Sequence record: NC_048193.1 | Direction: 5' to 3' (one strand) | DNA from: Escherichia phage PTXU04 | DNA: 61,600 nucleotides | In this document: positions 246 through 25,600 of the stretch, in pieces | How positions within the stretch are numbered: the stretch's first letter is position 1 | Layout: every line of letters starts with the position of its first letter | The notes under the pieces: generated by a model | What the model saw: only the letters and a program-made list of their open reading frames with translations | Told to the model about the DNA's origin: nothing | Databases searched by the model: none | Made by a program: the position numbers and the translations under genes

Positions 246-992
246 ATGACACCAGAAACCCGCGCGGGGTTTATCCTGGAGTACATCGAAGGCGACCTGA
301 CCGATCAGTTGCTGGCGGCAAAGTACGGCCTCGATGACTACCAGTTTAAAACCGCTGTACATATCGGAACCGGGAACATCATCAAGCCGGAACCTCTAAC
401 CCGTGGATTAAAGCGCGGTATGCGTAACAGTATGGCGGTGACTCATCTCGCTACCAAAACACTTGACGCTGAAGAGATGGCATTGAGTCCCCTTCAGTCG
501 GCTGAGATTATCGAACCGAAGGCGCGCGACCTGGCGCTATTCCTCAATAACGCGGAGCTATCTTTCGCTAATAACGTGCTCAGGGGAATGAACGCCACCG
601 CAGCAGCCGCCGCCAGCTTTGAGATCTTCAATAAACAACTGGCTGATAAGAAGGCCGCCGAATTATTGCGGTCATCTCACGTTGCCGACTACCTGGCGAG
701 CATGAAGGGTAAAAGCCTGTTTGCCCCGGTGCGGAACAAAGCATACCTTGAGGCCGTACTATGGCAGGTCATCGACCGTGGCCTACAACTGAGGCAGGAA
801 GTCGACACGCTTACAGGGTTACCAGTTGAAGGCCAATGTAAGTACGATCCGAAGTCGGTCATTGCTGCAAGTGCGTTACTGTCACGCCTCAAAGGCTGGG
901 ATAACGTGGAGCAGGGACAAGGTGAAGCCGAAACACAACGCGATCGCTTACGTCGACTGCAAGCAAACTTTAAACAGAATGGGGGCGAGTAA
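246..992 (+). CDS. hypothetical protein, possible terminase small subunit
   Basis: 248-aa ORF with AAAGGAA RBS-like sequence upstream; stop abuts the start of the large terminase at 992. Function inferred from position only; no motif recognised. Confidence 0.45.
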   Translation: MTPETRAGFILEYIEGDLTDQLLAAKYGLDDYQFKTAVHIGTGNIIKPEPLTRGLKRGMRNSMAVTHLATKTLDAEEMALSPLQSAEIIEPKARDLALFLNNAELSFANNVLRGMNATAAAAASFEIFNKQLADKKAAELLRSSHVADYLASMKGKSLFAPVRNKAYLEAVLWQVIDRGLQLRQEVDTLTGLPVEGQCKYDPKSVIAASALLSRLKGWDNVEQGQGEAETQRDRLRRLQANFKQNGGE

Positions 993-2623
993 TGTCTAAA
1001 CGTGACGTGTGGGAGTTTACCAACACCGACGAAGATGTGTGGATGTTGGTCGACTACTTAGAGAAGAAGGCAAATAGCGTTAACTTCACCTTTGAGGATG
1101 ACTCGGAGATGGATGCCTTTTTCCTCAAGTGTCGTAACGAGTTCCAATTCTTCGCTGAGCGGTGCCTTGTTATTCGTGGTAAGGACAACACGATCGCCCC
1201 CATCCGGCTTAACAAAGCTCAGCAATACATGAATGCAATCGCAGCCTGGCAGATGCACCACACCGGAAAGGTGCGGATTGTGGTCGTTAAAGGTCGCCAG
1301 CAGGGGATGAGTACCACGGTCCAGGCCAGAGCATACTGGAAGACGATTCACACCGAGGCTTATCACTCGTTAATTATGGCGCATCAGGCTAAGTCATCAT
1401 CAGCGTTGTTCGACATGACCAAGCGTTACCATCAGCATTGCCCTCCAGACTTGCAGCCTGTTAAGGGTCACGATAACGGCATGATGCTCAGCTTTCCTGA
1501 GTTAGATAGCAAGTACGCCGTGGCAACCGCTGGATCTACATCTGCCGGACGTGGCCTTACAGCTTCCTTCTTCCACGGGTCGGAGGTCGGCTTCTTTGAT
1601 GATGGTGCTGAGATTGCTTCCGGTATCATGCAGGCCATCCCTAATGCCGACGGTACCGAGGTCTATTTAGAGTCAACCGCCAACGGTGCTTCGGGCTATT
1701 TCTACACCCAATGGATGCTGGCAGCGCCTGCGGTCAATGATAGCCTGACGGATGCCGATAGCTCTGGTTTTATCCGTGTATTCGTGCCGTGGTTCTGGCA
1801 AGACGAGTACCGCAGTCCGGCTCCTGATTCCTTCGTGTACAGCGATGAAGAAAGCAAGTATGCCCGACTCTATGGACTGGACCGCGATCAGATGTTCTGG
1901 CGTCGTAAGCAAATCAAGTTGCTTGATGGCGACTCCCGACGCTTCGACCGTGACTATCCGGCAACCGCTGAGTTAGCTTTCCAGGCTACAGGCGACAACC
2001 TGCTTATTACTGGTGACATGGTGGCCTCTGCGTTGTACTGGGCGAAATCCGGTAAGCTCGATCCTGTCGGTGCTACTGTAATGGGCGTAGACGTTGCGGC
2101 AATGGGTGATGACTCGACGGCATTCGTGGTGCGTCGTGGTCGTGTGGTCCTGCATTGTGAGAAGCTGAGCAAGGCCAGCAACGGCGAGATTGCCAACCGT
2201 CTTCATGTACTGCGGGAACTGTACGGCGTCAACCATACGTTCATTGATGGGACTGGCGGCTACGGTACTGGCGTTCATGATCTTCTGGCTGCCCGTGGTG
2301 CTGCACATAATGTTACGCTGGTCCACTTCTCCGAGAAGGCGACGGAAGACCACAAGTACGCCAATAAACGTGCTGAAATGTGGGTTCGTATTCGTGACTG
2401 GATGCGTAACGCTGCCTCACTTCCTCAGGGTCATGACTGGGGCCGCGACCTCTGCGCGCCTACCTACCGCTTTGATGGTGACCGCCTGCGCCTTGAGAAG
2501 AAGGACGAAATTAAGAAGCGTATCGGTCGTTCGCCTGATATTGGTGACGCGCTGGCCCTTACATTCGCCTTCCCGGTTATCGAGGGTGGCTACAACGACA
2601 GCTATGAACCGGATGTCGCTTAA
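992..2623 (+). CDS. terminase large subunit
   Basis: 543 aa; N-terminal ATPase with VVVKGRQQGMSTT Walker-A-like motif typical of phage large terminases; C-terminal nuclease-like region (FIDGTGGYG). Confidence 0.85.
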   Translation: MSKRDVWEFTNTDEDVWMLVDYLEKKANSVNFTFEDDSEMDAFFLKCRNEFQFFAERCLVIRGKDNTIAPIRLNKAQQYMNAIAAWQMHHTGKVRIVVVKGRQQGMSTTVQARAYWKTIHTEAYHSLIMAHQAKSSSALFDMTKRYHQHCPPDLQPVKGHDNGMMLSFPELDSKYAVATAGSTSAGRGLTASFFHGSEVGFFDDGAEIASGIMQAIPNADGTEVYLESTANGASGYFYTQWMLAAPAVNDSLTDADSSGFIRVFVPWFWQDEYRSPAPDSFVYSDEESKYARLYGLDRDQMFWRRKQIKLLDGDSRRFDRDYPATAELAFQATGDNLLITGDMVASALYWAKSGKLDPVGATVMGVDVAAMGDDSTAFVVRRGRVVLHCEKLSKASNGEIANRLHVLRELYGVNHTFIDGTGGYGTGVHDLLAARGAAHNVTLVHFSEKATEDHKYANKRAEMWVRIRDWMRNAASLPQGHDWGRDLCAPTYRFDGDRLRLEKKDEIKKRIGRSPDIGDALALTFAFPVIEGGYNDSYEPDVA

Positions 2624-2682
2624 GATATACTCATCACACGGGGCGCATGGAGTGCCCCACTTCGCCCAGGGAGGGCCAGCTA

Positions 2683-3519
2683 ATGACCGTTACCGTCAAG
2701 CTCATCACCGAGCAAACCACTAACAAACTCGTCGACTCTGTAAACGCGGCTCAGGCTATGGGCTGGTTCCCGGTGTGCGGCGTGGTCTGCTTCAACGCTC
2801 GCTACACTCAGCTAATGACACTGGATACCGACGCTACCGAGGTTCCCGCCTGTAACTATTTTATCGTGGACGCTGCCGACAGCGTATCGTTCACCCAGCG
2901 CGTCAATCAATTACTCGACATTAATCCGGGCGCTGTGTGCCTTTCACCCGTGCAGTATTCACATGCTCGTTACATTCAGGCTTACGGCGATAACGTTGAT
3001 GACAACCGTCCGGTAAGTGCTGTGTTTCGTGCATCCTTCACTACTACAGGTCTTGCGCTGAATCAGTACGTTACCACCGACAACACCCCGCAGGTTGTGG
3101 TGTTCAATGCTCAGGCATTACCTAACGCCGCTCTAGGTACGCTCGACAATGCCACAGGTATATTCACAGCGGCGCGACGCATTGTCGGTACTCTGGCTAT
3201 AACCTGTCAGGTGCGTCGAACTACTGGTGGCGCTGCCGCTGTAACGTGGGGTTTTCAGGTGGAGACATCACCGGACGGCGTAACGTGGACACCTACAGCC
3301 GGGAGCGCACGTTATATCAACCTTCGCGGTGCAGGTGATAACAACGTTTTGCAGGTCATCGGGCTGACATCAGCAGTTGACATCCCGTCCGGCACCCGCC
3401 TCCGTATTACTCAGATGACCGATACATCATCGGCAAACGTTGGTCTGGCAGCACTCCCGGCTATGTTGGGTGGCGCTACGGCTGCGGGTCTGGTGTTCTC
3501 GTTAATTACCACGCTGTGA
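2683..3519 (+). CDS. hypothetical protein
   Basis: ORF-track frame 2647-3519; start moved to in-frame ATG at 2683 preceded by GGAGGG RBS. Followed by GGGGC-TTCG-GCCCC hairpin at 3527-3540. Confidence 0.5.
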   Translation: MTVTVKLITEQTTNKLVDSVNAAQAMGWFPVCGVVCFNARYTQLMTLDTDATEVPACNYFIVDAADSVSFTQRVNQLLDINPGAVCLSPVQYSHARYIQAYGDNVDDNRPVSAVFRASFTTTGLALNQYVTTDNTPQVVVFNAQALPNAALGTLDNATGIFTAARRIVGTLAITCQVRRTTGGAAAVTWGFQVETSPDGVTWTPTAGSARYINLRGAGDNNVLQVIGLTSAVDIPSGTRLRITQMTDTSSANVGLAALPAMLGGATAAGLVFSLITTL

Positions 3520-3560
3520 TACCATAGGGGCTTCGGCCCCTTATTCACGGAGTACATGAC

Positions 3561-5009
3561 ATGGAATTAACAGTTGCGGGTGGCTACTTCATTCCCGGCA
3601 AGACGCCGCAAATTATCAATAAGGTTAATGAGTTAATCGCTCTCGGCTACGTTCCCTACGGTACCCCGACGTATAACGAGGCCAGCGGTTGGGTAAGTCA
3701 GCTAATGGTGCTGGGCTACGGCGGCAGCGCTACTGACTACACTCTCACGACTGGTTATCTCGATAAGACTCCCTACTTCCCTAAGAAGCCGCCAGTTAAC
3801 GGTAATTGGGTGTTGCTCGGCTCACTACTGGCGCGCTCCAATAATTTCTACGTGCACGCATGGCTTGACGGCGTAGCCGCTGGCCCACTCATCAATATCG
3901 ACACGGGCACCACTGGCACGCTACCAATCAGCCGGGGCGGTACCGGGGCAACTACGGAACTGGACGCACGCAACAATCTGGAGTTAGGCGCAGAGGATGA
4001 CGTGACGTTTAACAGCGTTACCAGTCGCAAGCGCAACACCGGAACGTCAGCGTTCATCGCTCAGGGCGTTGATGGCTACACTCCAGCATCCAGCTTTACA
4101 ACGCAGATGTACGACACCGCAGGTACCACGTTGCTCGGTCAGGGCGAGTTCCGCGCCAACAATAACGGTACGCTGCAAATCATCAACCGCGATCCTGTAG
4201 GTTCAACGTCATACTTCTGGACCTTCGGACGCGACGGGACTACTGAGTTTCCGGGACAAACAATTATTCCCGCAACTCCGGGTAAACCTTGCATCCTCAG
4301 GTCGGGTGCTCCGGTTCTCCAGTTTGAGGAAACCGATACTGGCAAGGTTTACACGATGGTTGCCGATGGTAGCGGTCTGCGTATCAATGCTAACAACACA
4401 AGCGGTCCGATCGTATGGGGTTATAGCGGAACAACATCTCGTCTACAATTACCTGGTATCGAGGGTAACATTCAGATGTATAGCGGCACCACAACCAGCC
4501 TCGGTGTAATCACTACTGGCGGCGGTACCACAGCGGTGGGTACTCGCAACCAGTTTGAGGTGACCACTTCGGCGGGGTTCTATCTGGTGCGACGTAACAC
4601 TCAGAACACCACCGGACAATATATTATCAACTTCCCTACGAGTGCAGGAACCCTGGCCCTCGCAGGTACGTCAGGTATCAATTTCAAACATGACATTACT
4701 GACGCCGATTTACTGGAAGCTGTGAACCGCATCGACGCGCTACGCATGGTCAACTTTGTCTACAACGACGACGAGCAAAACCGCCAGCGCTTCGGGATTA
4801 TCGCGGAAGAGGCGGAAACTATAGCTCCGCAGTACATTAAACATCGTGAAGAAATGTATGAATGCGACATTGACGAGAACGGATCATCCATCAACCAGAA
4901 GTTCCGCGACCGTCCGTTTGTTGACGTTAACCCCATCGTCATGGATTTACTGGGCTACGTTAAGCACTTGTCGGCACGCGTGGCTGAACTGGAAGAGAAA
5001 TTAAAGTGA
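3561..5009 (+). CDS. tail fiber/spike protein with C-terminal intramolecular chaperone (peptidase S74-like) domain
   Basis: 482 aa; Gly/Thr-rich beta region; C-terminus (FGIIAEEAETIAPQYI ... LLGYVKHLSARVAELEEKLK) resembles the self-cleaving chaperone domain of phage fibers/endosialidases. GGAG RBS 9 nt upstream. Confidence 0.6.
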   Translation: MELTVAGGYFIPGKTPQIINKVNELIALGYVPYGTPTYNEASGWVSQLMVLGYGGSATDYTLTTGYLDKTPYFPKKPPVNGNWVLLGSLLARSNNFYVHAWLDGVAAGPLINIDTGTTGTLPISRGGTGATTELDARNNLELGAEDDVTFNSVTSRKRNTGTSAFIAQGVDGYTPASSFTTQMYDTAGTTLLGQGEFRANNNGTLQIINRDPVGSTSYFWTFGRDGTTEFPGQTIIPATPGKPCILRSGAPVLQFEETDTGKVYTMVADGSGLRINANNTSGPIVWGYSGTTSRLQLPGIEGNIQMYSGTTTSLGVITTGGGTTAVGTRNQFEVTTSAGFYLVRRNTQNTTGQYIINFPTSAGTLALAGTSGINFKHDITDADLLEAVNRIDALRMVNFVYNDDEQNRQRFGIIAEEAETIAPQYIKHREEMYECDIDENGSSINQKFRDRPFVDVNPIVMDLLGYVKHLSARVAELEEKLK

Positions 5010-5041: not shown

Positions 5042-5230
5042 ATGGCAGGACGTCAAGTTTCATACACTACCCGCAGCTTCACTGAAATCGTGAATCGCCT
5101 GGACCCGAAGCGACTGTCTACCCCGGAAGCGGTATACGTGTTCGACAACGGAAAGGTGAAGAGCGAGCAGCCGACGCTACCGGGTCACGACTATCGTTGG
5201 ACTAAGGACATTGAGAATGACAACAGTTAA
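5042..5230 (+). CDS. hypothetical protein
   Basis: 62-aa ORF with strong GGAGGTG RBS. Confidence 0.45.
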   Translation: MAGRQVSYTTRSFTEIVNRLDPKRLSTPEAVYVFDNGKVKSEQPTLPGHDYRWTKDIENDNS

Positions 5231-5585
5231 CCATGCAGTGATTTACACGCGCGGTACAGGTAGTGACGCTATCGAGATTGCAAACTACGAACTGGCCTCC
5301 ATCATCGGCGAGTGTCTGCACAACGCATACCCCGGCTACCTGTGGCGTGTAAACGCTGAGATTGAAGGTGGTATCGTTAACATCCTGTGTGGCGACGTGT
5401 CCTACGAGTCCGGCGCTACGTTGATGATCGCTGACCTGGAAGAACCTGTCGCGGCCAAGCGTCACGTACTGAAGGCTGGTGGTGAAATTCTGGAACGCGC
5501 CAGACTGCACCGTGGACGTATGCGCGAGCATGAACTGGTGGAAGCCAAGCGCGACATTCGTGGTAACATCATTGGTTTAAACTGA
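5211..5585 (+). CDS. hypothetical protein
   Basis: 124-aa ORF overlapping the previous stop; AAGGA RBS. Confidence 0.45.
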   Translation: MRMTTVNHAVIYTRGTGSDAIEIANYELASIIGECLHNAYPGYLWRVNAEIEGGIVNILCGDVSYESGATLMIADLEEPVAAKRHVLKAGGEILERARLHRGRMREHELVEAKRDIRGNIIGLN

Positions 5586-5595
5586 GGATTAAGAG

Positions 5596-7977
5596 ATGCC
5601 GAACGCACAAAAGGGGATTAGTGAGTCCCTCGTTGGTCGCGCGCCGGACACCCAGTCGCCTTACGGCGGCGGTGGTGCTCGCGGGATTACGCAGGTAAAC
5701 GACGATCCGTACCGCGCTAACCAGATTATTCCGGGCGCTGAACTGGACATCAACCAGGCATCCTTCGGTGAGATGGACTCATTCTCCCAGTTCGAGAAGG
5801 AAGGCGATACGCTGCAAGCCGAGGAACAGACCTACGACCAACCGGACGACTCCGGCGTTGCTGGCATGTCTGAAACTGAGTGGGTAGACCTCGGTCGCCG
5901 TTGCTATGACACGGGCCGCACCTTCTACCGTCAGGGCTACCAGACGCAGCACATCAACGACACCTATCTGTTTAAAGGTCGCCACGAACCGGGCAGCAAG
6001 TATTACAGCGAAGCGTTCCGCAACCGCTCGAAAGTTTTCCGCCCGTTAACCCGCATGGCCTCCCGTAGCTGGGAAGCGGACATTGCAACCGCTCTGTTCC
6101 TGAACGATGACTACATGCACATCTCGCCACGCAACGTAACCGATCAGGATGCGGATAAAGCGGCGGCAGTGCTGAAGGAAATTGTAAACCTTCGTCTGGA
6201 TAAAATCTGGTACCCGATTTGTATCGGTGCGGCGCAGGACTCATTCATCAATGGGCCAGCAATCGCTAAGGTTTTCTGGTGGCGTGAAACTACCGTTACC
6301 AAAACTGACATTCCGGTGCTGGATGAGATGGGTAATCTGGTCGGTCTGGAAACTACCGAGAACGAAATCGTCGTTCACGATGAGCCGTACATCGACCTGA
6401 TCCTGCCGGAAAACTTTATCTTTGACCCGACCGCAAAAGCGAACGATGTCATCGGTACTGGCAAGTATTTCATCCACAGAAAAATGATGTCTGTTGATGA
6501 CGTCATGGTACGGATGGAACGCGGCGAGTGGAACATGCTGTCACCTGGCGAAATCCTGACGTGTCGCTGGGCGATGGAAGACGACGCCACGCAGCAGGCA
6601 AAACGCGGTGAAGGTAAGCCGGACCCAATCAACAACGACAACGCTGATACCCGTTACGAATCCGTGATGGTTAACGAAGTGTTCGTCCGCCGTGACGGTA
6701 TCTGGTACACCTACCACATGATGGGTACCCAGTTCTTACTGGAAATGCCTGTGGAACTGAAGAACCGCTATCACCACGGTCGCCTGCCGTTCGTTTACGG
6801 TACCTGCATGATTGAGTCTCACAACAACGTGCCGGACTCAAAAGCCCACCTGGGTAGCGAGTTGCAGAAGGCAGTGAACGAAATCAGTAACCAGCGCGTG
6901 GACAACGTTAAGCTCGTACTGAACAAGCGTTATCTGGCGCGTCGCGGTGCATCTATCGACCTGGCCGCTCTGACACGCTCCACTCCGGGCGGCGTAATTT
7001 TCACCAGCGACCCGGCTGGCGACCTGATCCCGCAGGAAGTGAACGACGTCACCAGTAGCAGCTATGAGGAAACTCAGCGCCTGACTATGGAGATGAACGA
7101 AGCGCAGGGTACCTTCAGCGGCCAGGCTGTAGCCAACAACCGCGAGATGAACGAAACCGTCGGTGGTATGAAGTTGCTGAGCAACGCCGCTACCAAAGTG
7201 AACGACTTCGACATCCGTACCTTCGTTTTCACCTTCGTGCGCCCGGTGCTGGAACTGTTCATGCTCACCGTTCAGTATTATGAGAACGACGAGACGATCA
7301 TGCACATCGCCGTCGACAACTCGGCCTACTTCCCGCGCCTCAACGTGGAAGACCTGACCGACGATCTCATGACTAAACAGCTTGAGATGAAAGTCGATAC
7401 AGGTATTGGTGCAACTGATCCGGTACAGCGCGTAAACACCTTGATGTACGGTGTGACGACGGTAATGCAGTTACCCGGCATGGCTGACAACATGGATAGT
7501 AAAGCCGTCGGCAGCGCTATCTTCTCAACGCTCGGTCAGGGTGACGGTAGTAAATTCTTCCCGAATCTGGCGAAGAACTTCCAGGAGCCGCCTCCGTCAG
7601 AACCACCAGTTGATCCGCTGGTACAGGCTGCACAGGAAGAAGCGAAAGGTCGAGTGCAGGAAGCGCAGATTAAAGCTGAACTGGAACTCCAGAAGCAAGC
7701 CAACCAACTGGCCGCCGACCGCGAACTGAAGTTGATTCAGATGGCGCTCGACGCAGAACTGGAAGGTAAGCGCGGTCAGCTTGATATGTTGCTGTCTATG
7801 CTGGATAATGAAACCCGGCTACGGATTGCCGAAGCACAGGACAAGACCAAGCGTCAGACCACCGCACTCCAGCACGGAAGCTCATTGCAGCAGACGGCGA
7901 TGCAGCAGGCCCAGCAAATCGGCCAGCAGGTAACGCCTACTCAGCAGGAAGTTATCAATGAGTCAAACGTCAAGTAA
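5596..7977 (+). CDS. portal protein
   Basis: 793-aa protein between terminase and scaffold/capsid genes; size, position and coiled-coil C-terminus fit a podovirus-type portal. Positional call. Confidence 0.65.
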   Translation: MPNAQKGISESLVGRAPDTQSPYGGGGARGITQVNDDPYRANQIIPGAELDINQASFGEMDSFSQFEKEGDTLQAEEQTYDQPDDSGVAGMSETEWVDLGRRCYDTGRTFYRQGYQTQHINDTYLFKGRHEPGSKYYSEAFRNRSKVFRPLTRMASRSWEADIATALFLNDDYMHISPRNVTDQDADKAAAVLKEIVNLRLDKIWYPICIGAAQDSFINGPAIAKVFWWRETTVTKTDIPVLDEMGNLVGLETTENEIVVHDEPYIDLILPENFIFDPTAKANDVIGTGKYFIHRKMMSVDDVMVRMERGEWNMLSPGEILTCRWAMEDDATQQAKRGEGKPDPINNDNADTRYESVMVNEVFVRRDGIWYTYHMMGTQFLLEMPVELKNRYHHGRLPFVYGTCMIESHNNVPDSKAHLGSELQKAVNEISNQRVDNVKLVLNKRYLARRGASIDLAALTRSTPGGVIFTSDPAGDLIPQEVNDVTSSSYEETQRLTMEMNEAQGTFSGQAVANNREMNETVGGMKLLSNAATKVNDFDIRTFVFTFVRPVLELFMLTVQYYENDETIMHIAVDNSAYFPRLNVEDLTDDLMTKQLEMKVDTGIGATDPVQRVNTLMYGVTTVMQLPGMADNMDSKAVGSAIFSTLGQGDGSKFFPNLAKNFQEPPPSEPPVDPLVQAAQEEAKGRVQEAQIKAELELQKQANQLAADRELKLIQMALDAELEGKRGQLDMLLSMLDNETRLRIAEAQDKTKRQTTALQHGSSLQQTAMQQAQQIGQQVTPTQQEVINESNVK

Positions 7978-11959: not shown

Positions 11960-12622
11960 ATGTCGAATACCCTGTTAGGAATGTCTCAACGAGTTGCCCG
12001 TGACGCAGGGTATTCCGGCAATATCCAGTCGGTAGCTGTGGTGTCCGGCGACGCTGCGCGCATTGTGCAGTATGTGAAGGACGCCACCACTTATATTGAA
12101 AACCTGTGGGGTGACTGGCGCTTCCTGTGGGGCGGTATGCTTGAAGGTACCGTCGATACCGGGGAAACTCATATCGTGCCACCACTCGGTCATTATCGCT
12201 GGGATCAGGCTCGTCTCATGTTTGACAACCACCTGGTCTACCCGGAACTATTTCACAACTTCAGCCCGTACAGCACCATGCTGGAACAGGGATACCCGAC
12301 TCAGTTTGTCATCATGCCGGACTCGTCTATCCAGATGTACCCGCGCCCTGACAAGCAATTCAACTTTCAATTTTCCTGGTACCGTGAGTCCGTAGAGTTG
12401 GTCAACGACTCCGACACTCCGCTGGTACCCGCGCGCTTCTGCAACACAATCGTGGCCTATGCGCTGTGGCTGTATGCAATGTACGACGACGCGGCGGAAC
12501 TGGCAGCCAAGTCTCAGGCCGAATACGACAAATACCTGCGCCTGCTTGAAGCTGACCAACGTCCTGACGGTTTCCCAACCAACCAGTCGTCCGGTAACTT
12601 CTTCTCTATTTCAGCGAGCTAA
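11960..12622 (+). CDS. virion structural protein (tail tube A-like by position)
   Basis: 220 aa; strong AAGGAG RBS; sits directly before a 756-aa protein, the arrangement of podovirus tail tubular proteins A/B. Positional inference. Confidence 0.45.
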   Translation: MSNTLLGMSQRVARDAGYSGNIQSVAVVSGDAARIVQYVKDATTYIENLWGDWRFLWGGMLEGTVDTGETHIVPPLGHYRWDQARLMFDNHLVYPELFHNFSPYSTMLEQGYPTQFVIMPDSSIQMYPRPDKQFNFQFSWYRESVELVNDSDTPLVPARFCNTIVAYALWLYAMYDDAAELAAKSQAEYDKYLRLLEADQRPDGFPTNQSSGNFFSISAS

Positions 12623-12625
12623 ATC

Positions 12626-14896
12626 ATGGCTAATTATGATCGCTTTGCATTGCAAGGTGGCCTCGACACGGCCACTCCTTATCTCAGCCGCCAGCCCGGT
12701 ACGCTGACTGCCGCCACAAACTTCTCCCCTGAGACGGATGGCGGCTATGCGCTTGAGGCTGGTTACGAACGTTTCGACGGTCAGCCAGCACCGAGCGAGA
12801 CTGTGGTGTACAGCCTCAACATGACGGACGATGTTACAGGTCTGCTACCGGGTGACGTTATCACAGGATCAACGTCCGGCGCGGTAGCAACTGTCGGCGC
12901 GGTTTTCGGTAAAGAAATCTGGTGTGATGTCACTAATGGTGTCACATTCATGCCGGGTGAGAATATCGGCGCTAACGTTATCGAGTACCTCTCAACGGAA
13001 GCTATTGACCAACGCAGCTACAGTCCGACAGCTACACGCACTACGATTCTGTTGATGTCACCGCTGGCGGCTAACACACTGGAAGTCGGCGATGCGTTAC
13101 TGGGCTTATCCTCAGCCGCTACAGTGGAAGTGAACATCATCAAAGTTACCAACGCTGACATGTGGGTATACGTGTCCACGCTGGCTGGCGCGGTGCAGAT
13201 TGGCGAGACGATGGTGAAGGGTGATGGTACCGAGTACAAGGTTAACGGTGAGTACGAAGTGGAACCTATGCTGGCCTCCCCGGATACTCCCGCAGGTGTC
13301 TTCTTTTACCTGAGCGAATTACGTCGCGCTAAGATTGGTGTGGTGCCGGGTATCAACAGTGTGCGCGGTGTATGGGATCTGGAAGGTGTCGTGTACTCGT
13401 TCCGTGACGCTGACGCCGACAGCACCAAAATGTACCGCAGTACGGTGACAGGCTGGCAGGAAGTCGACCTGGGCTTTACGATGGGATGGGATACGCGCCC
13501 GTCTACAACCACTGACGATGAACTCGGTCCGGGTGATTCAATCCGTGGTGTGACGTCCGGCGCTACGGCAACCGTCGGCTGGGTAGGTTACATCGCTCAG
13601 GATCACTCGTCAGGCTACCTGACGTTCACCAACGTGACCGGAACGTTCCAGGCGGGTGAAGTAATTCGCAACGACACGTACAGCGTCGACATTGGTGAAG
13701 TGACTGCGGCGGCCACGGCTAACGTACTCCCGGCTAACGGTCTGTACCGTTTCACCAACCACAACTTCTTCGGCGGTCTGAACACCTTCGCAATGTACGG
13801 CGTGAACGGTGTCGGTAACGGTTTCGTATACAACGAGACGAACGGCTTCTCATTCATCCCGACGCAGGCAGATACGGATACACCGTTCGACGTGGTTGAA
13901 TACAAAGACCACTTATTCTATGCGTTCCCGAAAGGTAGCCTGCAACACAGCGTGCTGGGTAGTCCGATGGACTGGAGCGGTGGCCTCGGCGCACTGGCGG
14001 TCGGCGTAGGTTCGGAAATCTCTTCACTGATTCCGGCACCAAAATCGCTTATTATTTGTACAGAGAAAGACATCCAAAGTCTTGAGGGGAGCAGCATCGA
14101 TGACTGGCAAAAAGAGGTTATTACTCAGCATACTGGTATCTCTAAATTTACTGGGGTGTACCAGTCTCAATCACTCGTACTCGCCCAGGCAGGTATCATT
14201 AGTATCGACCGGACTGACCAATTTGGTAACTTTAGCGACGGTACTATCAGCGACATCATCCGAGACACCATCGTACCTAACTATTCTCGCTGCACTTGCG
14301 CAATGGCAAGGAAGAGTCGAGGGCAGTACAGACTACATTTCGAGGGAGACGTCAACATTGCCCTTTCCACTAACCAGGGGAATGTGATCGGCTTCTCGAT
14401 GTTTGACTACGGCGGTCTGACGGTGCGTACGGCGGTCAACCCGTACGGTCGTATCTTCTTCATTTCGGACACCGGATACGTCTATCAGGATTCCGTAGGG
14501 GCCAGTAACGATGGTGGTGAACGGTCATCTGTATTCCGCACATCCTTCGCCAACCAGGGTGACCCGGATACTCGCAAGCGGTACCGCCGTATGGACATGA
14601 GTATCCGTGCTCAATCTTACCTTAACGCGCGTGTCGTTTTCTCGTACAATAAAGGCGCATCCACGCCGCAGGCATCGGTCGAATCTGGCCTGTTAGTGTC
14701 CGGCGGCGGACGCTGGGATTTGTCGCTGTGGGGGCAAGTCTACTGGGATGCCACGGAAAACCCGACAATCTCGTCTGACATTGACGGTTTAGGTTTTGAC
14801 ATCAGCACCATGCTGTACATCCGGTCACGAATCCATCCGCAGTTTACCGCAGAGGATTTATCATTCGAATGGTCACCACGTAGAAAGGTACGATAA
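12626..14896 (+). CDS. virion structural protein (tail tube B-like by position)
   Basis: 756-aa beta-rich protein between the 220-aa protein and the fibers. Confidence 0.45.
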   Translation: MANYDRFALQGGLDTATPYLSRQPGTLTAATNFSPETDGGYALEAGYERFDGQPAPSETVVYSLNMTDDVTGLLPGDVITGSTSGAVATVGAVFGKEIWCDVTNGVTFMPGENIGANVIEYLSTEAIDQRSYSPTATRTTILLMSPLAANTLEVGDALLGLSSAATVEVNIIKVTNADMWVYVSTLAGAVQIGETMVKGDGTEYKVNGEYEVEPMLASPDTPAGVFFYLSELRRAKIGVVPGINSVRGVWDLEGVVYSFRDADADSTKMYRSTVTGWQEVDLGFTMGWDTRPSTTTDDELGPGDSIRGVTSGATATVGWVGYIAQDHSSGYLTFTNVTGTFQAGEVIRNDTYSVDIGEVTAAATANVLPANGLYRFTNHNFFGGLNTFAMYGVNGVGNGFVYNETNGFSFIPTQADTDTPFDVVEYKDHLFYAFPKGSLQHSVLGSPMDWSGGLGALAVGVGSEISSLIPAPKSLIICTEKDIQSLEGSSIDDWQKEVITQHTGISKFTGVYQSQSLVLAQAGIISIDRTDQFGNFSDGTISDIIRDTIVPNYSRCTCAMARKSRGQYRLHFEGDVNIALSTNQGNVIGFSMFDYGGLTVRTAVNPYGRIFFISDTGYVYQDSVGASNDGGERSSVFRTSFANQGDPDTRKRYRRMDMSIRAQSYLNARVVFSYNKGASTPQASVESGLLVSGGGRWDLSLWGQVYWDATENPTISSDIDGLGFDISTMLYIRSRIHPQFTAEDLSFEWSPRRKVR

Positions 14897-16521
14897 TGGC
14901 TAACACTTATTTCAACTACATGGACCCGGTAGAACCGGGCGACCGTCTGGAGTCGAACAAATACAACGGTGACTTCTCCGCGATCGCCCGTGCTTTCGAC
15001 ATTCTACCGTCGCCAGATGCGCTGGCCTCCAACACCGGAAACTATGCCCGGTCACAGGGTACATCCACGGCGTACACAGTAACCCTCCCGCGCTTCGATG
15101 GTAGCTTCGGTTACATCACGGGTATGCAGGTGTTGCTCAACATTCACGTCAACAACACCGGGGCGGCCACGCTCAACATTAACGGACTCGGCCCTAAGCC
15201 ACTCGTCAACCTGACTACCGCGCTCGGCCCACTGGTGGCTAATGATCTGCGTGCAGGTACCATCTATTCCATCCGTTATGATGGTACCCGTTTCCAGGTA
15301 GTCAACACTGTTTCCGGTGCCGTAAACGCATCGCAGACCGCAGCTACCCAGGCAACTACTGCCGCCACAAACGCTGGTACGTCCGCCACAAACGCAGCAG
15401 CCAGCGCCAGCGCCGCAGCGACAAGCGCGAGTAACGCAGCAGCCAGTGCCAGTACCGCATCTTCAGGTGTTACCGCCGCTGCAAACTCTGCCAGCGCCGC
15501 ATCAACATCTGCAACCAACGCCGCAAACTCTGCGTCTGCGGCAAACACATCTGCGGGTAACGCCGCCAGCAGCGCCACGGCAGCATCCGGCAGCGCCACG
15601 GCAGCGGCAAACTCTGCCACGGCAGCATCCGGCAGCGCCAGTACCGCTAACACTCGCGCTACGGCAGCGGCAGCAAGTGCTACGGCAGCAGCAAACTCCG
15701 CAACTCAGGCAGCGGCCAGTGCTCAGACTGCACTCAATGCTATCGGCGACGCGTCGTTCAAAGCGGCGGTGATGGGTGTCCTGTTGACCAGTTCGCTGGA
15801 CGTGGGTACCGTCAAGTTCTATGCGCTGAACATTGACCCTAATGTCAAATATCCCGGTACCACCTGGGTACGACTGCCCGTGTCCCAAAGCATCCGCACA
15901 TCCCTGGCCGACGCAAGTGACGTCATGACCACGGTAGGTGCTGACACTGTGACACTGGTAACAGCCAACATCCCGTCACACAGTCACACGGGTACAGCGA
16001 CGATTGCCAGTACGGATTTGGGTAACAAGACGTCAACCAGCTTTGACTACGGTACCAAAACATCCAGCACCAAAGACTACGGTAACCTTACGTCATCCAG
16101 CTTTGACTACGGTAACCTTACGTCATCCAGCTACGATTACGGCAATGCCACATCAAGCGCCGCAGGTAGTCACAGTCATACAGTACCCGCTATTATCGGT
16201 ACCGGTACTACACCATCGCTCAAATCAGCAGCAAACGACTCATCGTCTGCGGGTAACGTCGCCACATCCAGCGTTGGTAACCACACGCATACGTTCGACC
16301 TACCGTCACACAACCACACTGTTGGTATCGGCTCACATACACACACCGTGTCGTTGGGTACACACAGTCACACTGTAGCGGTGGGAAGCCACAGTCACAC
16401 CGTAGCGGTGGGAAGTCACAACCATACAGTGACAGCCAGCATCGGTAACACGGGTACTGGTCAGGCTTTCAGCATCGTGGCAAACTCTACTATCCTTGTC
16501 GGCTGGAGACGTACCGCATGA
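14896..16521 (+). CDS. tail fiber-like protein 1 (Ala/Ser-repeat shaft, His-X-His-X repeat tip)
   Basis: 541 aa; N-terminus MANTYFNYMDPVEPG similar to the next gene; long AANSASAA-type repeats; C-terminal SHSHTV/GSHSHTVAVGSHSHTVAVGSHNHTV repeats. Confidence 0.6.
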   Translation: MANTYFNYMDPVEPGDRLESNKYNGDFSAIARAFDILPSPDALASNTGNYARSQGTSTAYTVTLPRFDGSFGYITGMQVLLNIHVNNTGAATLNINGLGPKPLVNLTTALGPLVANDLRAGTIYSIRYDGTRFQVVNTVSGAVNASQTAATQATTAATNAGTSATNAAASASAAATSASNAAASASTASSGVTAAANSASAASTSATNAANSASAANTSAGNAASSATAASGSATAAANSATAASGSASTANTRATAAAASATAAANSATQAAASAQTALNAIGDASFKAAVMGVLLTSSLDVGTVKFYALNIDPNVKYPGTTWVRLPVSQSIRTSLADASDVMTTVGADTVTLVTANIPSHSHTGTATIASTDLGNKTSTSFDYGTKTSSTKDYGNLTSSSFDYGNLTSSSYDYGNATSSAAGSHSHTVPAIIGTGTTPSLKSAANDSSSAGNVATSSVGNHTHTFDLPSHNHTVGIGSHTHTVSLGTHSHTVAVGSHSHTVAVGSHNHTVTASIGNTGTGQAFSIVANSTILVGWRRTA

Positions 16522-18134
16522 GTAACCAATATTACAACTTTATCAATCCGGCTGAAGCGGGTACGATTGTCGACCCGTTCGACTACAACCGTGAGATGGA
16601 AAAGATCACCGAGGCTTTCTCGGTGGTCCCGCCTGCTTCCCAGTTAACTTCCGGTACCCTGAACTACTCAACGGATACGGGTACCGGGAATGATCACATC
16701 GCCACGCTGGATGACTTTGATACCGACTATGTTGCCGGGAGTAACGTTGCGCTCCGAATCAATGACGCGTCTACCGGACCGTCTACCCTGAGTGTAAACG
16801 GGCTGGCCGCTAAAGACGTCACGCTGTCTGTGTTCGGCGCTGTGGCGGCAGGTGACCTGTTTGCTGAAGGTGTCTATACCTTCGTATTCAACGGTGAGCG
16901 TTTCCAGATTCTGGAGATGGGCGCACGCTATTACACTACCGCCTTCGAACAGCTTTCAATCGCCCAGGCTAAAGCTGCACTCGCGGCGGCCAGTGAAGCT
17001 GCGGCACTGAGTGAGCGTAACGCAGCAGCAGCGTCGGCGGCAAACGCCCTCACGTCAGCAAACGCTATTACCGCGTCCAAAGATGCAGCAGCAGGTAGCG
17101 CTACGTCTGCGGCAAACTCTGCGTCGGCAGCAGCAGGTAGCGCTACGTCTGCGGCAAACTCTGCGTCGGCAGCCAACACCTCTGCGGTCAACTCCGCGTC
17201 AAGCGCAACGGCGGCGGCAAACTCCGCAACGGCGGCGGCAAACTCCGCGACGGCTTCCGACGCCAGCGCAACGGCGGCGGCAAACTCCGCAACAGCAGCA
17301 GCAGGTAGCGCGGCGGACGCAGCAACTTACGCACAGGAAGCTATCGACATCGTTAACGCGCCGAACTTTCTCGACCGCGTGCAGGCGGCTATTCTTGAAC
17401 TGGAACTGTTCCCCGGCTGTACCGAGTTCTTTGACGCTGACATCGATCCTAACGTTAAGTATCCGGGTACCACATGGGTACGCTTACCAGCGTCGACATC
17501 ATTACGTATGTCCAACGCCACGGGCAGTGACGTTAACGGAACGACAGGCGCTGACAGTGTGACACTTTCGACAAACAACCTGGCCTCGCACAACCATTCA
17601 GTGACAATGGGTACCGTGAGCAGCACCGACCTGGGTACCGACACTCTGGCATCTGTTGACCTGGGTACCGACACTCTGGCTAACACTACCATCGCAGCGA
17701 AGACCACATCCAGCTTCGACTATGGTACCAAAACGGCATCAGGTTACGATCCCGGTGCGATTTCCACCAGTGGTGCTGGCGGCCACAGTCACACGTTTAC
17801 GGCGTATACCGCAGACGGATCGGGAGTGAGAATACGCTCAGCAGCGAACGACTCGACGTCTGCGGGTAACGTCACCACATCAAGTGCTGGTAACCACACG
17901 CACACTGTAGCTTTAGGTGCGCACACGCACACTGTAGCTTTAGGTGCGCACACTCACACCTTCCCGGTCGGCAGTCACACGCACACTGTAGCTTTGGGAG
18001 CGCACAGCCACACAGTGGCTTACGGCAGTCACGGACATAGTGCCACATTGTCGTTAAGCAACACTGGTTCCGGTACGTCCTTTGGCGTGGTAGAATCGTC
18101 TCTAATCTTAGTTGCATGGTACAGGAGCGCATAA
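16518..18134 (+). CDS. tail fiber-like protein 2 (paralog of 14896-16521)
   Basis: 538 aa; N-terminus MSNQYYNFINPAEAG; Ala/Ser repeats including a perfect 42-bp tandem DNA repeat; C-terminal LGAHTHTVALGAHTHTVALGAHTHTF repeats. Confidence 0.6.
   Translation: MSNQYYNFINPAEAGTIVDPFDYNREMEKITEAFSVVPPASQLTSGTLNYSTDTGTGNDHIATLDDFDTDYVAGSNVALRINDASTGPSTLSVNGLAAKDVTLSVFGAVAAGDLFAEGVYTFVFNGERFQILEMGARYYTTAFEQLSIAQAKAALAAASEAAALSERNAAAASAANALTSANAITASKDAAAGSATSAANSASAAAGSATSAANSASAANTSAVNSASSATAAANSATAAANSATASDASATAAANSATAAAGSAADAATYAQEAIDIVNAPNFLDRVQAAILELELFPGCTEFFDADIDPNVKYPGTTWVRLPASTSLRMSNATGSDVNGTTGADSVTLSTNNLASHNHSVTMGTVSSTDLGTDTLASVDLGTDTLANTTIAAKTTSSFDYGTKTASGYDPGAISTSGAGGHSHTFTAYTADGSGVRIRSAANDSTSAGNVTTSSAGNHTHTVALGAHTHTVALGAHTHTFPVGSHTHTVALGAHSHTVAYGSHGHSATLSLSNTGSGTSFGVVESSLILVAWYRSA
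17089..17172. repeat. perfect 42-bp tandem duplication inside fiber gene 2
   Basis: cagcaggtagcgctacgtctgcggcaaactctgcgtcggcag occurs twice back to back (17089-17130, 17131-17172). Confidence 0.7.
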
Positions 18135-22648: not shown

Positions 22649-22689
22649 ATGTGCTATGCTTCCCCTATCAACAAGGGGGAGCATTTCTA

Positions 22690-25600
22690 ATGGCTAGTAA
22701 CATCGACCTTTCTGGACTGGACTTATCCCAGCCAAATCAACAACCTGCAACGAAGAAGTCTGAAAAGACTGCACCTGCTATTGACCTGTCGACGGTTAAC
22801 TTTGACCTGAGCGACGTAGACTTTTCCGGTATTGGAAATGAGAAGGCTGTCACAGAACCAGCAAAAGAAGATAGCTGGGGCGACGTAATTTACAAATCTC
22901 TCGCCGCGATGCCTGAGCGTATGCAACGTTCATGGCAGGGTATCAAACAAGGCGTGGCCGTTAAAGGTCAAGACCTGACTGACGGGGTGCTGGCTGAACG
23001 CCTGCGTAACGATCCGTCATATGCTGCCGAACTGGGGATTGACCCGGCTACCTTTACCGCTGCCGAAGGCGACACGTATGCGACCAAACTGCAAAAGAAT
23101 AAAGCTCTCTACGCCGCTATTGATAAAGCGAAGGCCGCAGAACTGAATAAGGATGCCGACTTTGTTGCCGCGCGTGATGAAGGTCTTCGCCTGTCAAACG
23201 AGATTGCCAAAACTGCACCGAAGACTGGTGACGAGTGGTCAGCTAAAAACCTGGTATCCACAATCCTCACTGGCGCGCAGGACATGTCTCCGGCAATCCT
23301 GACGTCCATCCTGTTGAAGCGTCCGGTCGCTGGCCTCGCTGAGATGACTGGTCAGGCGTACGGTTCCTACTATCAGGACTCAATCGACAAAGGTCTGTCT
23401 CCGGCAGAAGCCGATAACCGCGCTACCATGTTCGCCGCACTGGAACCAATCACTGAAGCGGTACCGCTGGGCCTCATCATGAAGAAGGGTGCGACTAGCC
23501 TGACTGACCTCGGTAAGTCTGCAATGGCTGAAGGTATCCAGGAGTCCGCTACCCAGGCTATCCAGAACGGTTACGACATTGGTGTGCTTGACGAAGATAT
23601 GACGGTAGGCCAGTTCCTGAATGACGTGGCGTTCTCCGGTGTAACTGGTGCTGGCGTAGGTGGCGTGCTGCATGGCGCGGTGCAAGCTCCCGGCATGGTC
23701 AAAGACTGGAAGGATAACCGCTCTGTTAACAACGCTATCGGTGACGCTGCGGCTGAGTCCGGTCAGGCGGTAGAAGGCGTGGACCCGAACGAGTACGACG
23801 CTGTGCGTGCTGAGATGGGCGGCGGTGACGTGCTGGACCAGATGGTTGAACAGGCATCTCCTGCAATCACTGAAGCTCGCAAGTCTGCCTACATGGAAGC
23901 GCGCGCCCAGGGTATGTCTCCGGCTGAAGCGATGGCCGCATCCCGTGAAGTCGGTGAAGTCGACGCTATGGATCAGATGGTCAGCGAACTGTTCGACTCC
24001 CCGGACTCCATCTACTATGCGAACAAGGCAAGCGCCACTAACGCACCGCAGTCTGTAGCACAGATGGTACAGCAGCAGGTAGCGCAGGGTGACATTGGTC
24101 CGCTTCCGGGCGAGACTAAAGGTCTGCCGTCTCCGGGGCAAACTTCCACCATCGCTATGCCCGGTCCAGTTGCGCAGGTTAAAGAGGCCACTGGCTACAA
24201 TCCACGCGGTGCGGCTGAAGAGTCTCCGGTACTGGCAGCAGTCCAGCAGAAACTGGAAGCGCCAGCACTGCCGCCGCAGGTTACTGAAGCTGTGGTACCG
24301 CCAGCACTGCCGCCTAAAGCTGAAGTGACTCCGCCTGCGTTACCGCAGATTGACGTAGCCGCTGCACTGGAACCTACCGTTCCTGCCGCTGAGCCAGCCG
24401 CTGCCGAGGTTAAACCGAAGCCAGCACTGTTTGCCCGTACCAAAAAGAAAGCCGCGCCAGAAGTCGATACAGAAGCACTGGCCGCCGAAGAAGCACGTCA
24501 GGCAGAACTGAAGGCGAAAGGTGACGAGGCTGTAGCCAAATACGTTGAGCGTGAATCCGTGCGTCCGGCGTTACCGGGTAAGAAGCCGCCAGCTATTCAG
24601 GTCACCAACAAGATCCTGAAGGAAGCCAACGAGCGTGGCGTTGACGTCGGCAATAAAGTGAACTGGAACGGCAAGGAGTATTCCGTCGATAAATTCCAGG
24701 GCCGTGCTGTACGTCTGGTTGATGAGAACGGCAACGGTCACATTGTTGATGCCCGTGAAATCAACGTGCCGTCTGTGGTACCGGAAGGTATGAAGCGTGT
24801 ATCCCAGGAAACCAAAGACGCCCGTGAGCGTTACGACCTGGCCCCTGTAGAGTTCGAAGATGAGCGCAACCTGGGTGAGATGGTTACCGATGCACAGCAG
24901 GCGACCGACGATGTACTGGCGCAGTCTGCCGAAGTTCAGCGTGACCTGGGTGAGATGATCGCTGAGAAGGAGAAGGACAACGCCGCAATTGAAGGTGAGT
25001 CCACTCGCGTTACCGACGTTGAAGGTCGTGTTGGTTTTGAACCAGTGGAAGGTACCGACCTGGACGGGAAGTATGCGAAAGACTCCCACGGTGAAGTCCG
25101 CAAGATTACTGGCGTGCAAGGTCGTCGCTTCGTGCTGGACAATGGCGACATCATGATTCGTCGCATTGGTGACACCAACGTGATGGATGCTCCACCTAAA
25201 GGCGCACGTAAAGCGATGTCGATGGAGGAACGTATTGTAGCTAACACGCTGCAAGGTATGCTGCATTCACTGAACGATACCAAGCGTCCGCTAAACAAAC
25301 TGCGCGAAAACATGTCTCACGCTAGTAATCAGGTTGATGAACAGTACCGCCATCTGTACGCGCCACTGAAGGGTAAGACTCGCGCGGCCATGCGCAAGGA
25401 ACTGGAAGACCGTATGTCCAGTATCGCTGAGCAGTCACCTAAAGGTCTGAGCAAAGAAAGTCAGGCGACGGCTGACCGCCTGCGTGAGAAGTCTTCCGCA
25501 CGCGCTGAGTCTTTCGAGAAGTCACTGGAAGATTTCACGCGTGGTATGAAACCGCTGGTACGTCGCAACTACATTCGCGCCCTGGAGAAGATGCAACCGG

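Follow-up and report, generated by a model that had tools for sequence, protein, structure and literature searches.

A fibre protein of Escherichia phage PTXU04 with a tandem DUF1737-like N-terminal module: a candidate capsid-anchored receptor-binding fibre encoded between terminase and portal

Escherichia phage PTXU04, the type phage of Xuquatrovirus (PMC6563267), codes for a fibre precursor, gp4 (PTXU04_00004), from a gene located between those of the large terminase and the portal in the 61,600-nucleotide stretch analysed here (NC_048193.1; referred to as the window). The gene coordinates (3561..5009) are those of PTXU04_00004 in the NC_048193 gene table supplementing a published genome-wide CRISPRi-ART knock-down screen of this phage (PMC11879866), where it carries the label 'putative tail fiber component' (supplementary file 16 of PMC11879866). 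Its annotation as a fibre gene is already known; what is new is to see it as a member of a family of DUF1737-anchored fibres that are probably capsid-borne. We consider it probable, with considerable room for doubt, that gp4 forms a trimeric fibre anchored on the capsid, with a receptor-binding tip like that of T5.

At its N-terminus gp4 resembles gp84 of phage phi24B, a NanS-p esterase, in that a homologous domain at the extreme N-terminus is followed by a functional module processed by proteolysis (predicted for gp4). Cryo-electron microscopy (cryo-EM) of phi24B shows the gp84 DUF1737 domain as a hexamer on the central pore of the capsid hexons (bioRxiv 10.64898/2026.04.10.717836), whereas for gp4 we infer capsid binding. 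The two proteins also differ in build and gene location: gp84 joins a single repeat to an esterase cargo and is encoded near the stx and lysis genes, whereas gp4 combines two repeats, of which the second is degenerate, with a predicted trimeric fibre bearing a receptor-binding tip, and is encoded between terL and portal. Four proteins of Drexlerviridae phages (Rogue1_0021, JK_26, bas01_0010 and e41c_0011) share with gp4 a two-repeat module, a trimeric fibre body and a location in the head gene cluster, but their body is a collagen triple helix with another C-terminal domain, and they lack an S74 chaperone; all four are uncharacterised.

The distal half of gp4 has counterparts in T5 pb1, BF23 Ltf and DT57C LtfA, with which it has the distal tip, the chaperone and an S-x4-K dyad in common. 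These L-shaped tail fibres are 1076–1400 residues long with a long N-terminal part on the siphovirus tail collar, whereas gp4 has 482 residues and a different anchor; upstream of residue 226, tblastn and the LtfA alignment revealed no similarity to them except for a GGTGA collar motif. The chaperone of endosialidase K1F (MEROPS S74) belongs to the same Pfam family and has the same five-residue Ser-Lys spacing as gp4, but its cargo is an enzymatic tailspike and that of gp4 a non-enzymatic fibre tip. The K1F dyad is formed by Ser911 and Lys916, and release of the chaperone is expected after trimer folding.

We know of no DUF1737 anchor, T5-like tip or S74 chaperone in SPP1 gp12 or phi29 gp8.5. 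Both are trimeric accessory capsid fibres thought to aid adhesion (review PMC7602432), and we propose the same role for gp4. A precedent for its placement is the collagen-like trimer of SPP1 gp12, which occupies the hexon centre (q6F in the table of PMC7602432), where gp4 is also proposed to sit; phi29 gp8.5, in contrast, is found at quasi-3-fold positions.

Domain organization of gp4

The gp4 gene and its parts are as follows.

3561..5009, + strand: gp4 (PTXU04_00004), fibre precursor, 482 residues, 52.1 kDa (ATG-start open reading frame with Pfam and PHROG matches)
3561..3884, + strand: N-terminal tandem DUF1737-like module, residues 1–108, proposed capsid anchor
3887..4976, + strand: exchangeable cassette, approximately residues 109–472, comprising the shaft, the receptor-binding tip and most of the chaperone (blastn against Pondi; alleles P0014–P0018)
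3915..3956, + strand: fibre collar motif GTLPISRGGTGATT, residues 119–132 (kept in Pondi and Bas95; aligned to DT57C LtfA residues 440–484)
4236..4670, + strand: T5/BF23 pb1-like distal receptor-binding tip, residues 226–370 (BF23 alignment, tblastn)
4671..5006, + strand: intramolecular chaperone, Peptidase_S74, residues 371–482, 13.0 kDa (Pfam, 8hqz_d and BF23 alignments)
4671..4673 and 4686..4688, + strand: codons of Ser371 and Lys376

The N-termini of gp4, of gp3 (the product of the adjacent upstream gene), and of Bas95_0004, Bas95_0005 and Bas95_0006 of HelliStehle (Bas95), a member of the BASEL collection (PMC11990801), align as a shared two-repeat module of about 105 residues. In gp4, repeat 1 spans approximately residues 1–52 and a degenerate repeat 2 approximately residues 53–108. 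DUF1737 (PF08410; Pfam cut-off 24 bits) is the sole Pfam family for the N-terminal domains of gp4, gp3 and Bas95_0006, all three scoring below the cut-off; the gp3 domain reaches 15.6 bits (E 0.015) in two stretches. Above the cut-off are the two-repeat relatives Bas95_0005 (28.7 bits) and a 100-residue open reading frame (ORF) of the metagenomic contig L007 (28.8 bits), and the N-terminal modules of Rogue1, AugustePiccard and e4/1c (27.9–37.6 bits, two stretches each). In hhalign comparisons, the gp4-family profile matches the Drexlerviridae tandem DUF1737 with a probability of 97.1% (E 7e-11, 104 columns) and the phi24B gp84 N-terminus with 91.8% (E 7e-7). At the level of sequence profiles, the gp4 anchor is thus homologous to DUF1737; we call it tandem because of the full-length match to the Drexlerviridae module, the internal repeat signal being weak.

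An AlphaFold2 (AF2) model of gp4 residues 1–110 has a predicted local distance difference test score (pLDDT) of 83.4 and a predicted template-modelling score (pTM) of 0.79, with elements in the order β-α-β-β-β and then β-β-β, including one helix. Repeat 1 contains strands 2–9, 30–32, 37–39 and 44–51 and helix 17–27, and is compatible with the DUF1737 fold (one helix, three antiparallel strands); repeat 2 consists of three strands, with a long loop in place of repeat 1's helix. The top Foldseek matches of this model in BFVD are uncharacterised proteins from three T1-like phages, Rogue1, JK06 and phiJLA23 (E 1.6e-4 to 1e-3; query template-modelling score, TMq, 0.63–0.68), the best being Rogue1 K7PMK4 (E 1.6e-4, TMq 0.68). 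Single-domain DUF1737 models in BFVD gave target scores (TMt) of 0.6–0.69, with E-values that were not significant.

Word-indexed protein searches with the N-domain, used by itself or in profile form, yielded short fragments only, and it was an exhaustive representative profile search that revealed the family. It consists of about 20 full-length module proteins of 281–770 residues with the module at residues 1–105 in all of them, and the distal parts are varied, including S74 fibres, Phage_tail_C_2, collagen repeats and gp3-like domains. Family members with trimer-type bodies carry two repeats, compared with one in the non-fibrous gp84.

The distal half of gp4 is related to tail fibres of the T5 type. 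Residues 226–481 align with the C-terminus of the BF23 L-shaped tail fibre (38% identity over a 277-residue alignment, E 2e-56), the C-terminal 160 residues (321–481) match the solved DT57C LtfA chain 8hqz_d (E 2e-52), and tblastn matches T5-like and Seuratvirus fibres; the best PHROG is phrog_1980 (E 2.6e-43), and tail-fibre families are matched. The self-cleaving chaperone-like domain given in the initial annotation of this DNA is borne out by a Peptidase_S74 match (PF13884) at residues 373–425, which at 36.1 bits (E 8.2e-9) clears the Pfam cut-off of 22 bits. The S-x4-K dyad is Ser371/Lys376 in the gp4 motif GTS-GINF-K, aligned to GTS-GIEY-K in LtfA and GTS-DINY-K in BF23. Cleavage is predicted between Thr370 and Ser371, which would yield a mature chain of 39.1 kDa and a 13.0-kDa chaperone from the 52.1-kDa precursor. 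The chaperone region (residues 371–482) is modelled by AF2 with pLDDT 69–88. The full-length monomer (mean pLDDT 59, pTM 0.29) is confident only in the anchor and the chaperone, as expected if gp4 is an obligate trimer, and owing to this low confidence it was excluded from the fold search.

Gene neighbourhoods and exchange of the distal part

The genes around gp4 and the remaining tail genes are the following.

246..992: terS-like gene, upstream of terL
992..2623, + strand: large terminase, terL (phrog_2, E 1e-24), left boundary of the locus
2683..3519, + strand: gp3 (PTXU04_00003), second fibre-like protein, 278 residues, between terL and gp4
5042..5230 and 5217..5585 (span 5042..5585), + strand: gp5 (62 residues) and gp6, two small ORFs
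5596..7977, + strand: portal (PF23899 SU10_portal, E 5.6e-34), right boundary of the locus
11960..12622: SU10_adaptor gene (PF24175), first of the remaining tail genes
12626..14896: nozzle-like gene
14896..16521 and 16518..18134, + strand: gp17 and gp18, paralogous fibres after the nozzle gene (PHROG tail-fibre families)

The phrog_2 terL upstream and the SU10_portal downstream confirm the placement between large terminase and portal reported in the initial annotation, and the distance of about 10 kb to the other fibre genes given there is 9.9 kb to the next fibre gene; the adaptor gene is 6.95 kb away, and the portal gene begins about 0.6 kb downstream of gp4. Missed at that stage were the second fibre-like gene at 2683..3519 and the existing 'putative tail fiber component' annotation. 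Gp5 and gp6 had no family match in the Pfam or PHROG searches.

The site between terL and portal is likewise occupied by fibre genes in Pondi (93.6% nucleotide identity), HelliStehle and the 36.7-kb contig L007. In the Vibrio-phage relatives, whose portals are about 34% identical, terL is followed by two small ORFs (66 and 133 residues) and the portal gene with no fibre gene between; these ORFs are matched to gp5 and gp6 by position and size only. Because the E. coli clade keeps it and the Vibrio-phage relatives lack it, the fibre locus is specific to the E. coli lineage. HelliStehle and L007 also have extra small genes at the locus, and the junction between terL and the fibre genes is an insertion hot spot. 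A homing endonuclease of about 512 residues is encoded on the opposite strand directly after terL in both (Bas95_0003, L002 2372..3910; L007 8335..9873) and is not found in PTXU04 or Pondi.

Within gp4, the boundaries of sequence exchange are sharp. Blastn against Pondi gives 93.5% identity up to position 3886, no detectable similarity from 3887 to 4976, and 93.6% identity from 4977 onwards. The first 108 residues of gp4 are 99% identical in Pondi, and in five metagenomic alleles (P0014–P0018) they are 94–99% identical and the last ten residues are kept, with 26–47% identity in between. A further allele from an ENA metagenome, P0002 (105 residues), has the anchor region, a short stretch and then the conserved C-terminal RVAELEEKLK, and looks, from its sequence, as if the entire cassette had been deleted from between the conserved ends.

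The GC content of gp4 is 0.529 compared with 0.528 for the genome, and the GC content at third codon positions (GC3) and the synonymous-codon likelihood of both gp4 and the cassette are within the range of other late genes. A compositionally foreign recent insert was considered and is rejected by GC, GC3 and codon choice. From sequence comparison, the pattern is one of cassette exchange among compositionally similar coliphages and not of recent foreign insertion. The suggestion in the initial annotation of a horizontally acquired receptor-binding module holds as far as the cassette is swapped relative to Pondi and the other alleles; the acquisition is not recent, with normal composition and a conserved position, and the GC and codon-usage comparison proposed there gave no difference from other late genes.

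Gp3 residues 1–108 form the same kind of two-repeat module as in gp4, and its C-terminal domain is distinct, matching phrog_26397 and phrog_37013 and resembling the C-terminal parts of ICP2 gp14 and of fibre proteins from RaK2 and K64-1. A direct BLASTP comparison of gp3 with gp4 is not significant (E 0.17), and their kinship is visible at the profile and alignment level only; gp3 is 96% identical in Pondi. We note that the ICP2 gp14 gene is just downstream of that for ICP2 gp16, a protein of 323 residues, the size of the PTXU04 capsid protein, which had no Pfam match. There are two to four module genes side by side in each Xuquatrovirus-like genome. Among them, Bas95_0005 (L002 4827..5129) and the ORF at L007 11470..11772 code for 100 residues comprising two DUF1737-like repeats without a fibre; going by sequence, such proteins could cap hexons on their own or compete for the docking site.

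Beyond this group, a tandem-DUF1737 gene is present in 24 records, and all those examined are T1-like Drexlerviridae phages. Rogue1_0021 (L010 9564..11009), in which the module is followed by a collagen triple-helix body, and e41c_0011 (L012 5010..6527) are directly upstream of the major capsid gene, and AugustePiccard bas01_0010 (L011 4956..6389) lies between a 'putative head outer capsid protein' (Hoc-like) gene and the major capsid gene. The labels of these genes are inconsistent ('DNA polymerase', 'tail fiber protein', 'collagen repeat protein'), and 'DNA polymerase' looks like a propagated annotation error. In the T4-like Escherichia virus TH44 (L005, MT446415.1), a module gene at 2428..4458 directly follows inh and hoc and codes for a protein of 676 residues, in which the tandem module, sharing 49.5% identity with the gp3 N-terminus, precedes collagen repeats and a fibre body. 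Scans of viral contigs for the genomic context of distant family members found none, a metagenome scan gave a single weak 3-kb match (L009), and the literature searched yielded no head fibres for Drexlerviridae or Rogue1.

Attachment of gp4 in the virion

Every module gene that could be placed is part of a head gene cluster, whether the phage is a podo-, sipho- or myovirus. All tailed phages have capsids built on the HK97 fold, and because the anchor spans three morphologies with dissimilar tails and a common HK97-type capsid, docking on the capsid is preferred over docking on the tail. Two repeats in the trimeric members and one in gp84 also fit a rule of six domains per hexon. The N-terminal ~135 residues of gp17 and gp18 are conserved with the fibres of the Vibrio-phage relatives, where one fibre gene occupies this position, and the tips of gp17 and gp18 are similar to the T4 gp37 needle (2xgf, E 4.9e-13). 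Gp17 and gp18 are likely the true tail fibres, at the ancestral position, and we count it in favour of capsid attachment that this tail-attachment domain, to which the gp4 N-terminus is unrelated, is present on them and not on gp3 or gp4. In the CRISPRi-ART screen in BL21, gp4 (-1.01, p 0.38, two guides) and gp3 (p 0.55) were scored 'Semi-Fit', both non-significant (PMC11879866), and the category given to gp16 and gp17 was 'Fit' (PMC11879866 supplementary file 16); false negatives are a known weakness of the method, and the scores of gp3 and gp4 are compatible with an accessory role.

We propose that the 52-kDa gp4 precursor would trimerise with the aid of its C-terminal chaperone (residues 371–482), which would fold the T5/BF23 pb1-like tip (residues ~226–370) and then cut itself off by Ser371/Lys376 autoproteolysis, so that a mature chain of 39 kDa remains. 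Three chains with two DUF1737-like repeats each would provide six domains, giving a pseudo-hexameric ring that plugs the hexon centre and mirrors the six single DUF1737 domains of phi24B gp84. Gp4 and gp3, with the same anchor and another tip, would be capsid-borne head fibres that bind surface glycans reversibly and raise the chance of capture, and the gp17/gp18 tail fibres and the nozzle would serve committed adsorption and DNA delivery. The region between the anchor and the last ten codons is a cassette recombining freely among related phages.

Several observations weigh against capsid attachment. To our knowledge, S74 chaperones and T5-like tips have so far been found only on tail fibres and tailspikes. 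The gp4 N-domain itself scores 13.9 bits (E 0.051) against DUF1737, below the cut-off, and repeat 2 is degenerate, with an hhalign probability of 33% (E 4e-4) against repeat 1 and of 2% against gp84. Solved structures searched with the N-domain model gave no match, which precludes a fold comparison with gp84. The evidence for capsid binding is limited to one preprint about a single phage, the lineages differ in the Pfam family of their major capsid proteins, and the TH44 link depends on one unverified record, the sole T4-like carrier in the phage collection. Peptide mass fingerprinting of four PTXU04 gel bands identified gp7, gp10 (the major capsid protein), gp11 and gp12 only, and transmission electron microscopy was described as showing a typical podovirus, with head fibres unmentioned (PMC6563267). 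Furthermore, HelliStehle is fully dependent on O-antigen (PMC11990801), which would be unusual for a head-borne O-antigen-binding fibre.

This absolute O-antigen requirement (PMC11990801) is easier to explain if gp4 is an ordinary tail side fibre, its N-domain docking on the adaptor-nozzle junction or on gp17/gp18 in a branched complex, and its gene occupying a permissive insertion site by the terminase. The PHROG tail-fibre families, the T5-type tip and the S74 chaperone all agree with such a fibre, as do GenBank, the CRISPRi-ART re-annotation and the BASEL paper, which label gp4 or its positional homologue a tail fibre, and the site after terL does tolerate insertions, as seen from the homing endonuclease in Bas95 and L007. 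The anchor, however, has no similarity to the tail-attachment domain shared by gp17, gp18 and the Vibrio-phage fibres, is homologous to the capsid-binding domain DUF1737, and recurs in sipho- and myoviruses that offer other docking sites, always among head genes; the knock-down in BL21 is also not clearly deleterious. On balance a tail side fibre seems unlikely, although it deserves serious consideration. That the fibre belongs to the tail was an unstated premise of the initial annotation, and we regard it as doubtful and as the weakest part of that interpretation. The related idea raised there, that conserved synteny might mark a head-associated protein, is partly supported: the position is kept in Pondi, Bas95 and L007 and the anchor belongs to a capsid-binding family.

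The nearness of the gp4 gene to the portal gene could also reflect attachment at the neck, on the portal or the adaptor collar in the manner of the T4 fibritin whiskers, and a ring of six domains could match the 6- or 12-fold symmetry of the neck too. We find this improbable, as the anchor gene adjoins the capsid gene and not the portal gene in Drexlerviridae and hoc in TH44, and the phi24B domain was seen on hexons and not at the neck. Still harder to credit, and very improbable in our estimation, is that the ORF is a recent foreign or decaying insert without a virion role. The locus is absent in the Vibrio-phage relatives, and truncated or frameshifted metagenomic alleles do exist (P0001, P0002), but gp4 has an intact frame of 482 codons with its catalytic dyad, a conserved anchor and genome-typical codon use, its position is conserved in four relatives, and there are many full-length alleles.

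Taking the carriers together, the balance tips slightly towards a widespread, hitherto unrecognised class of trimeric, capsid-borne receptor-binding fibres in coliphages, docked through a tandem-DUF1737 pseudo-hexameric hexon plug and fitted with swappable tips. Such a class may include podoviruses (Xuquatrovirus), siphoviruses (Drexlerviridae) and myoviruses (a T4-like phage), with S74-chaperoned T5-like, collagen-shaft and Phage_tail_C_2 forms, and its members are currently labelled tail fibres, DNA polymerases or hypothetical proteins. If gp4 is head-borne, host-range prediction and receptor-binding-protein engineering would be counting 'tail fibres' that do not position the tail, and Xuquatrovirus and many T1-like phages would recognise their hosts in two separate layers, with the capsid serving for capture and the tail for commitment. 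DUF1737 would then be a portable capsid-docking tag, with one repeat per chain for hexameric cargo and two for trimeric, useful for phage display, and the long-discussed role of head decorations in adhesion would become testable. If gp4 is tail-borne, its gene would be a mosaic receptor-binding gene of the ordinary kind, unusually placed but conserved in position.

Other features of the window

Two hairpins were read from the sequence on either side of gp3.

2640..2658, + strand: GC-rich hairpin GGGGCGCATGGAGTGCCCC between terL and gp3
3527..3540, + strand: hairpin GGGGCTTCGGCCCC with a UUCG-type loop, between gp3 and gp4

The second of these is followed by TTATT and then by the gp4 ribosome-binding site. 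A promoter and terminator scan gave no clear signals around the locus, and neither hairpin was called by the consensus terminator scan. The two GC-rich hairpins flanking gp3 could tune expression or mark cassette borders, as far as can be read from the sequence. At 22651..29283, the window also contains an ORF of 2210 residues with an LPD38 domain (PF18857, E 1.6e-38), which corresponds to gp25, a 'polyvalent protein' that the CRISPRi-ART screen found to be essential (PMC11879866).

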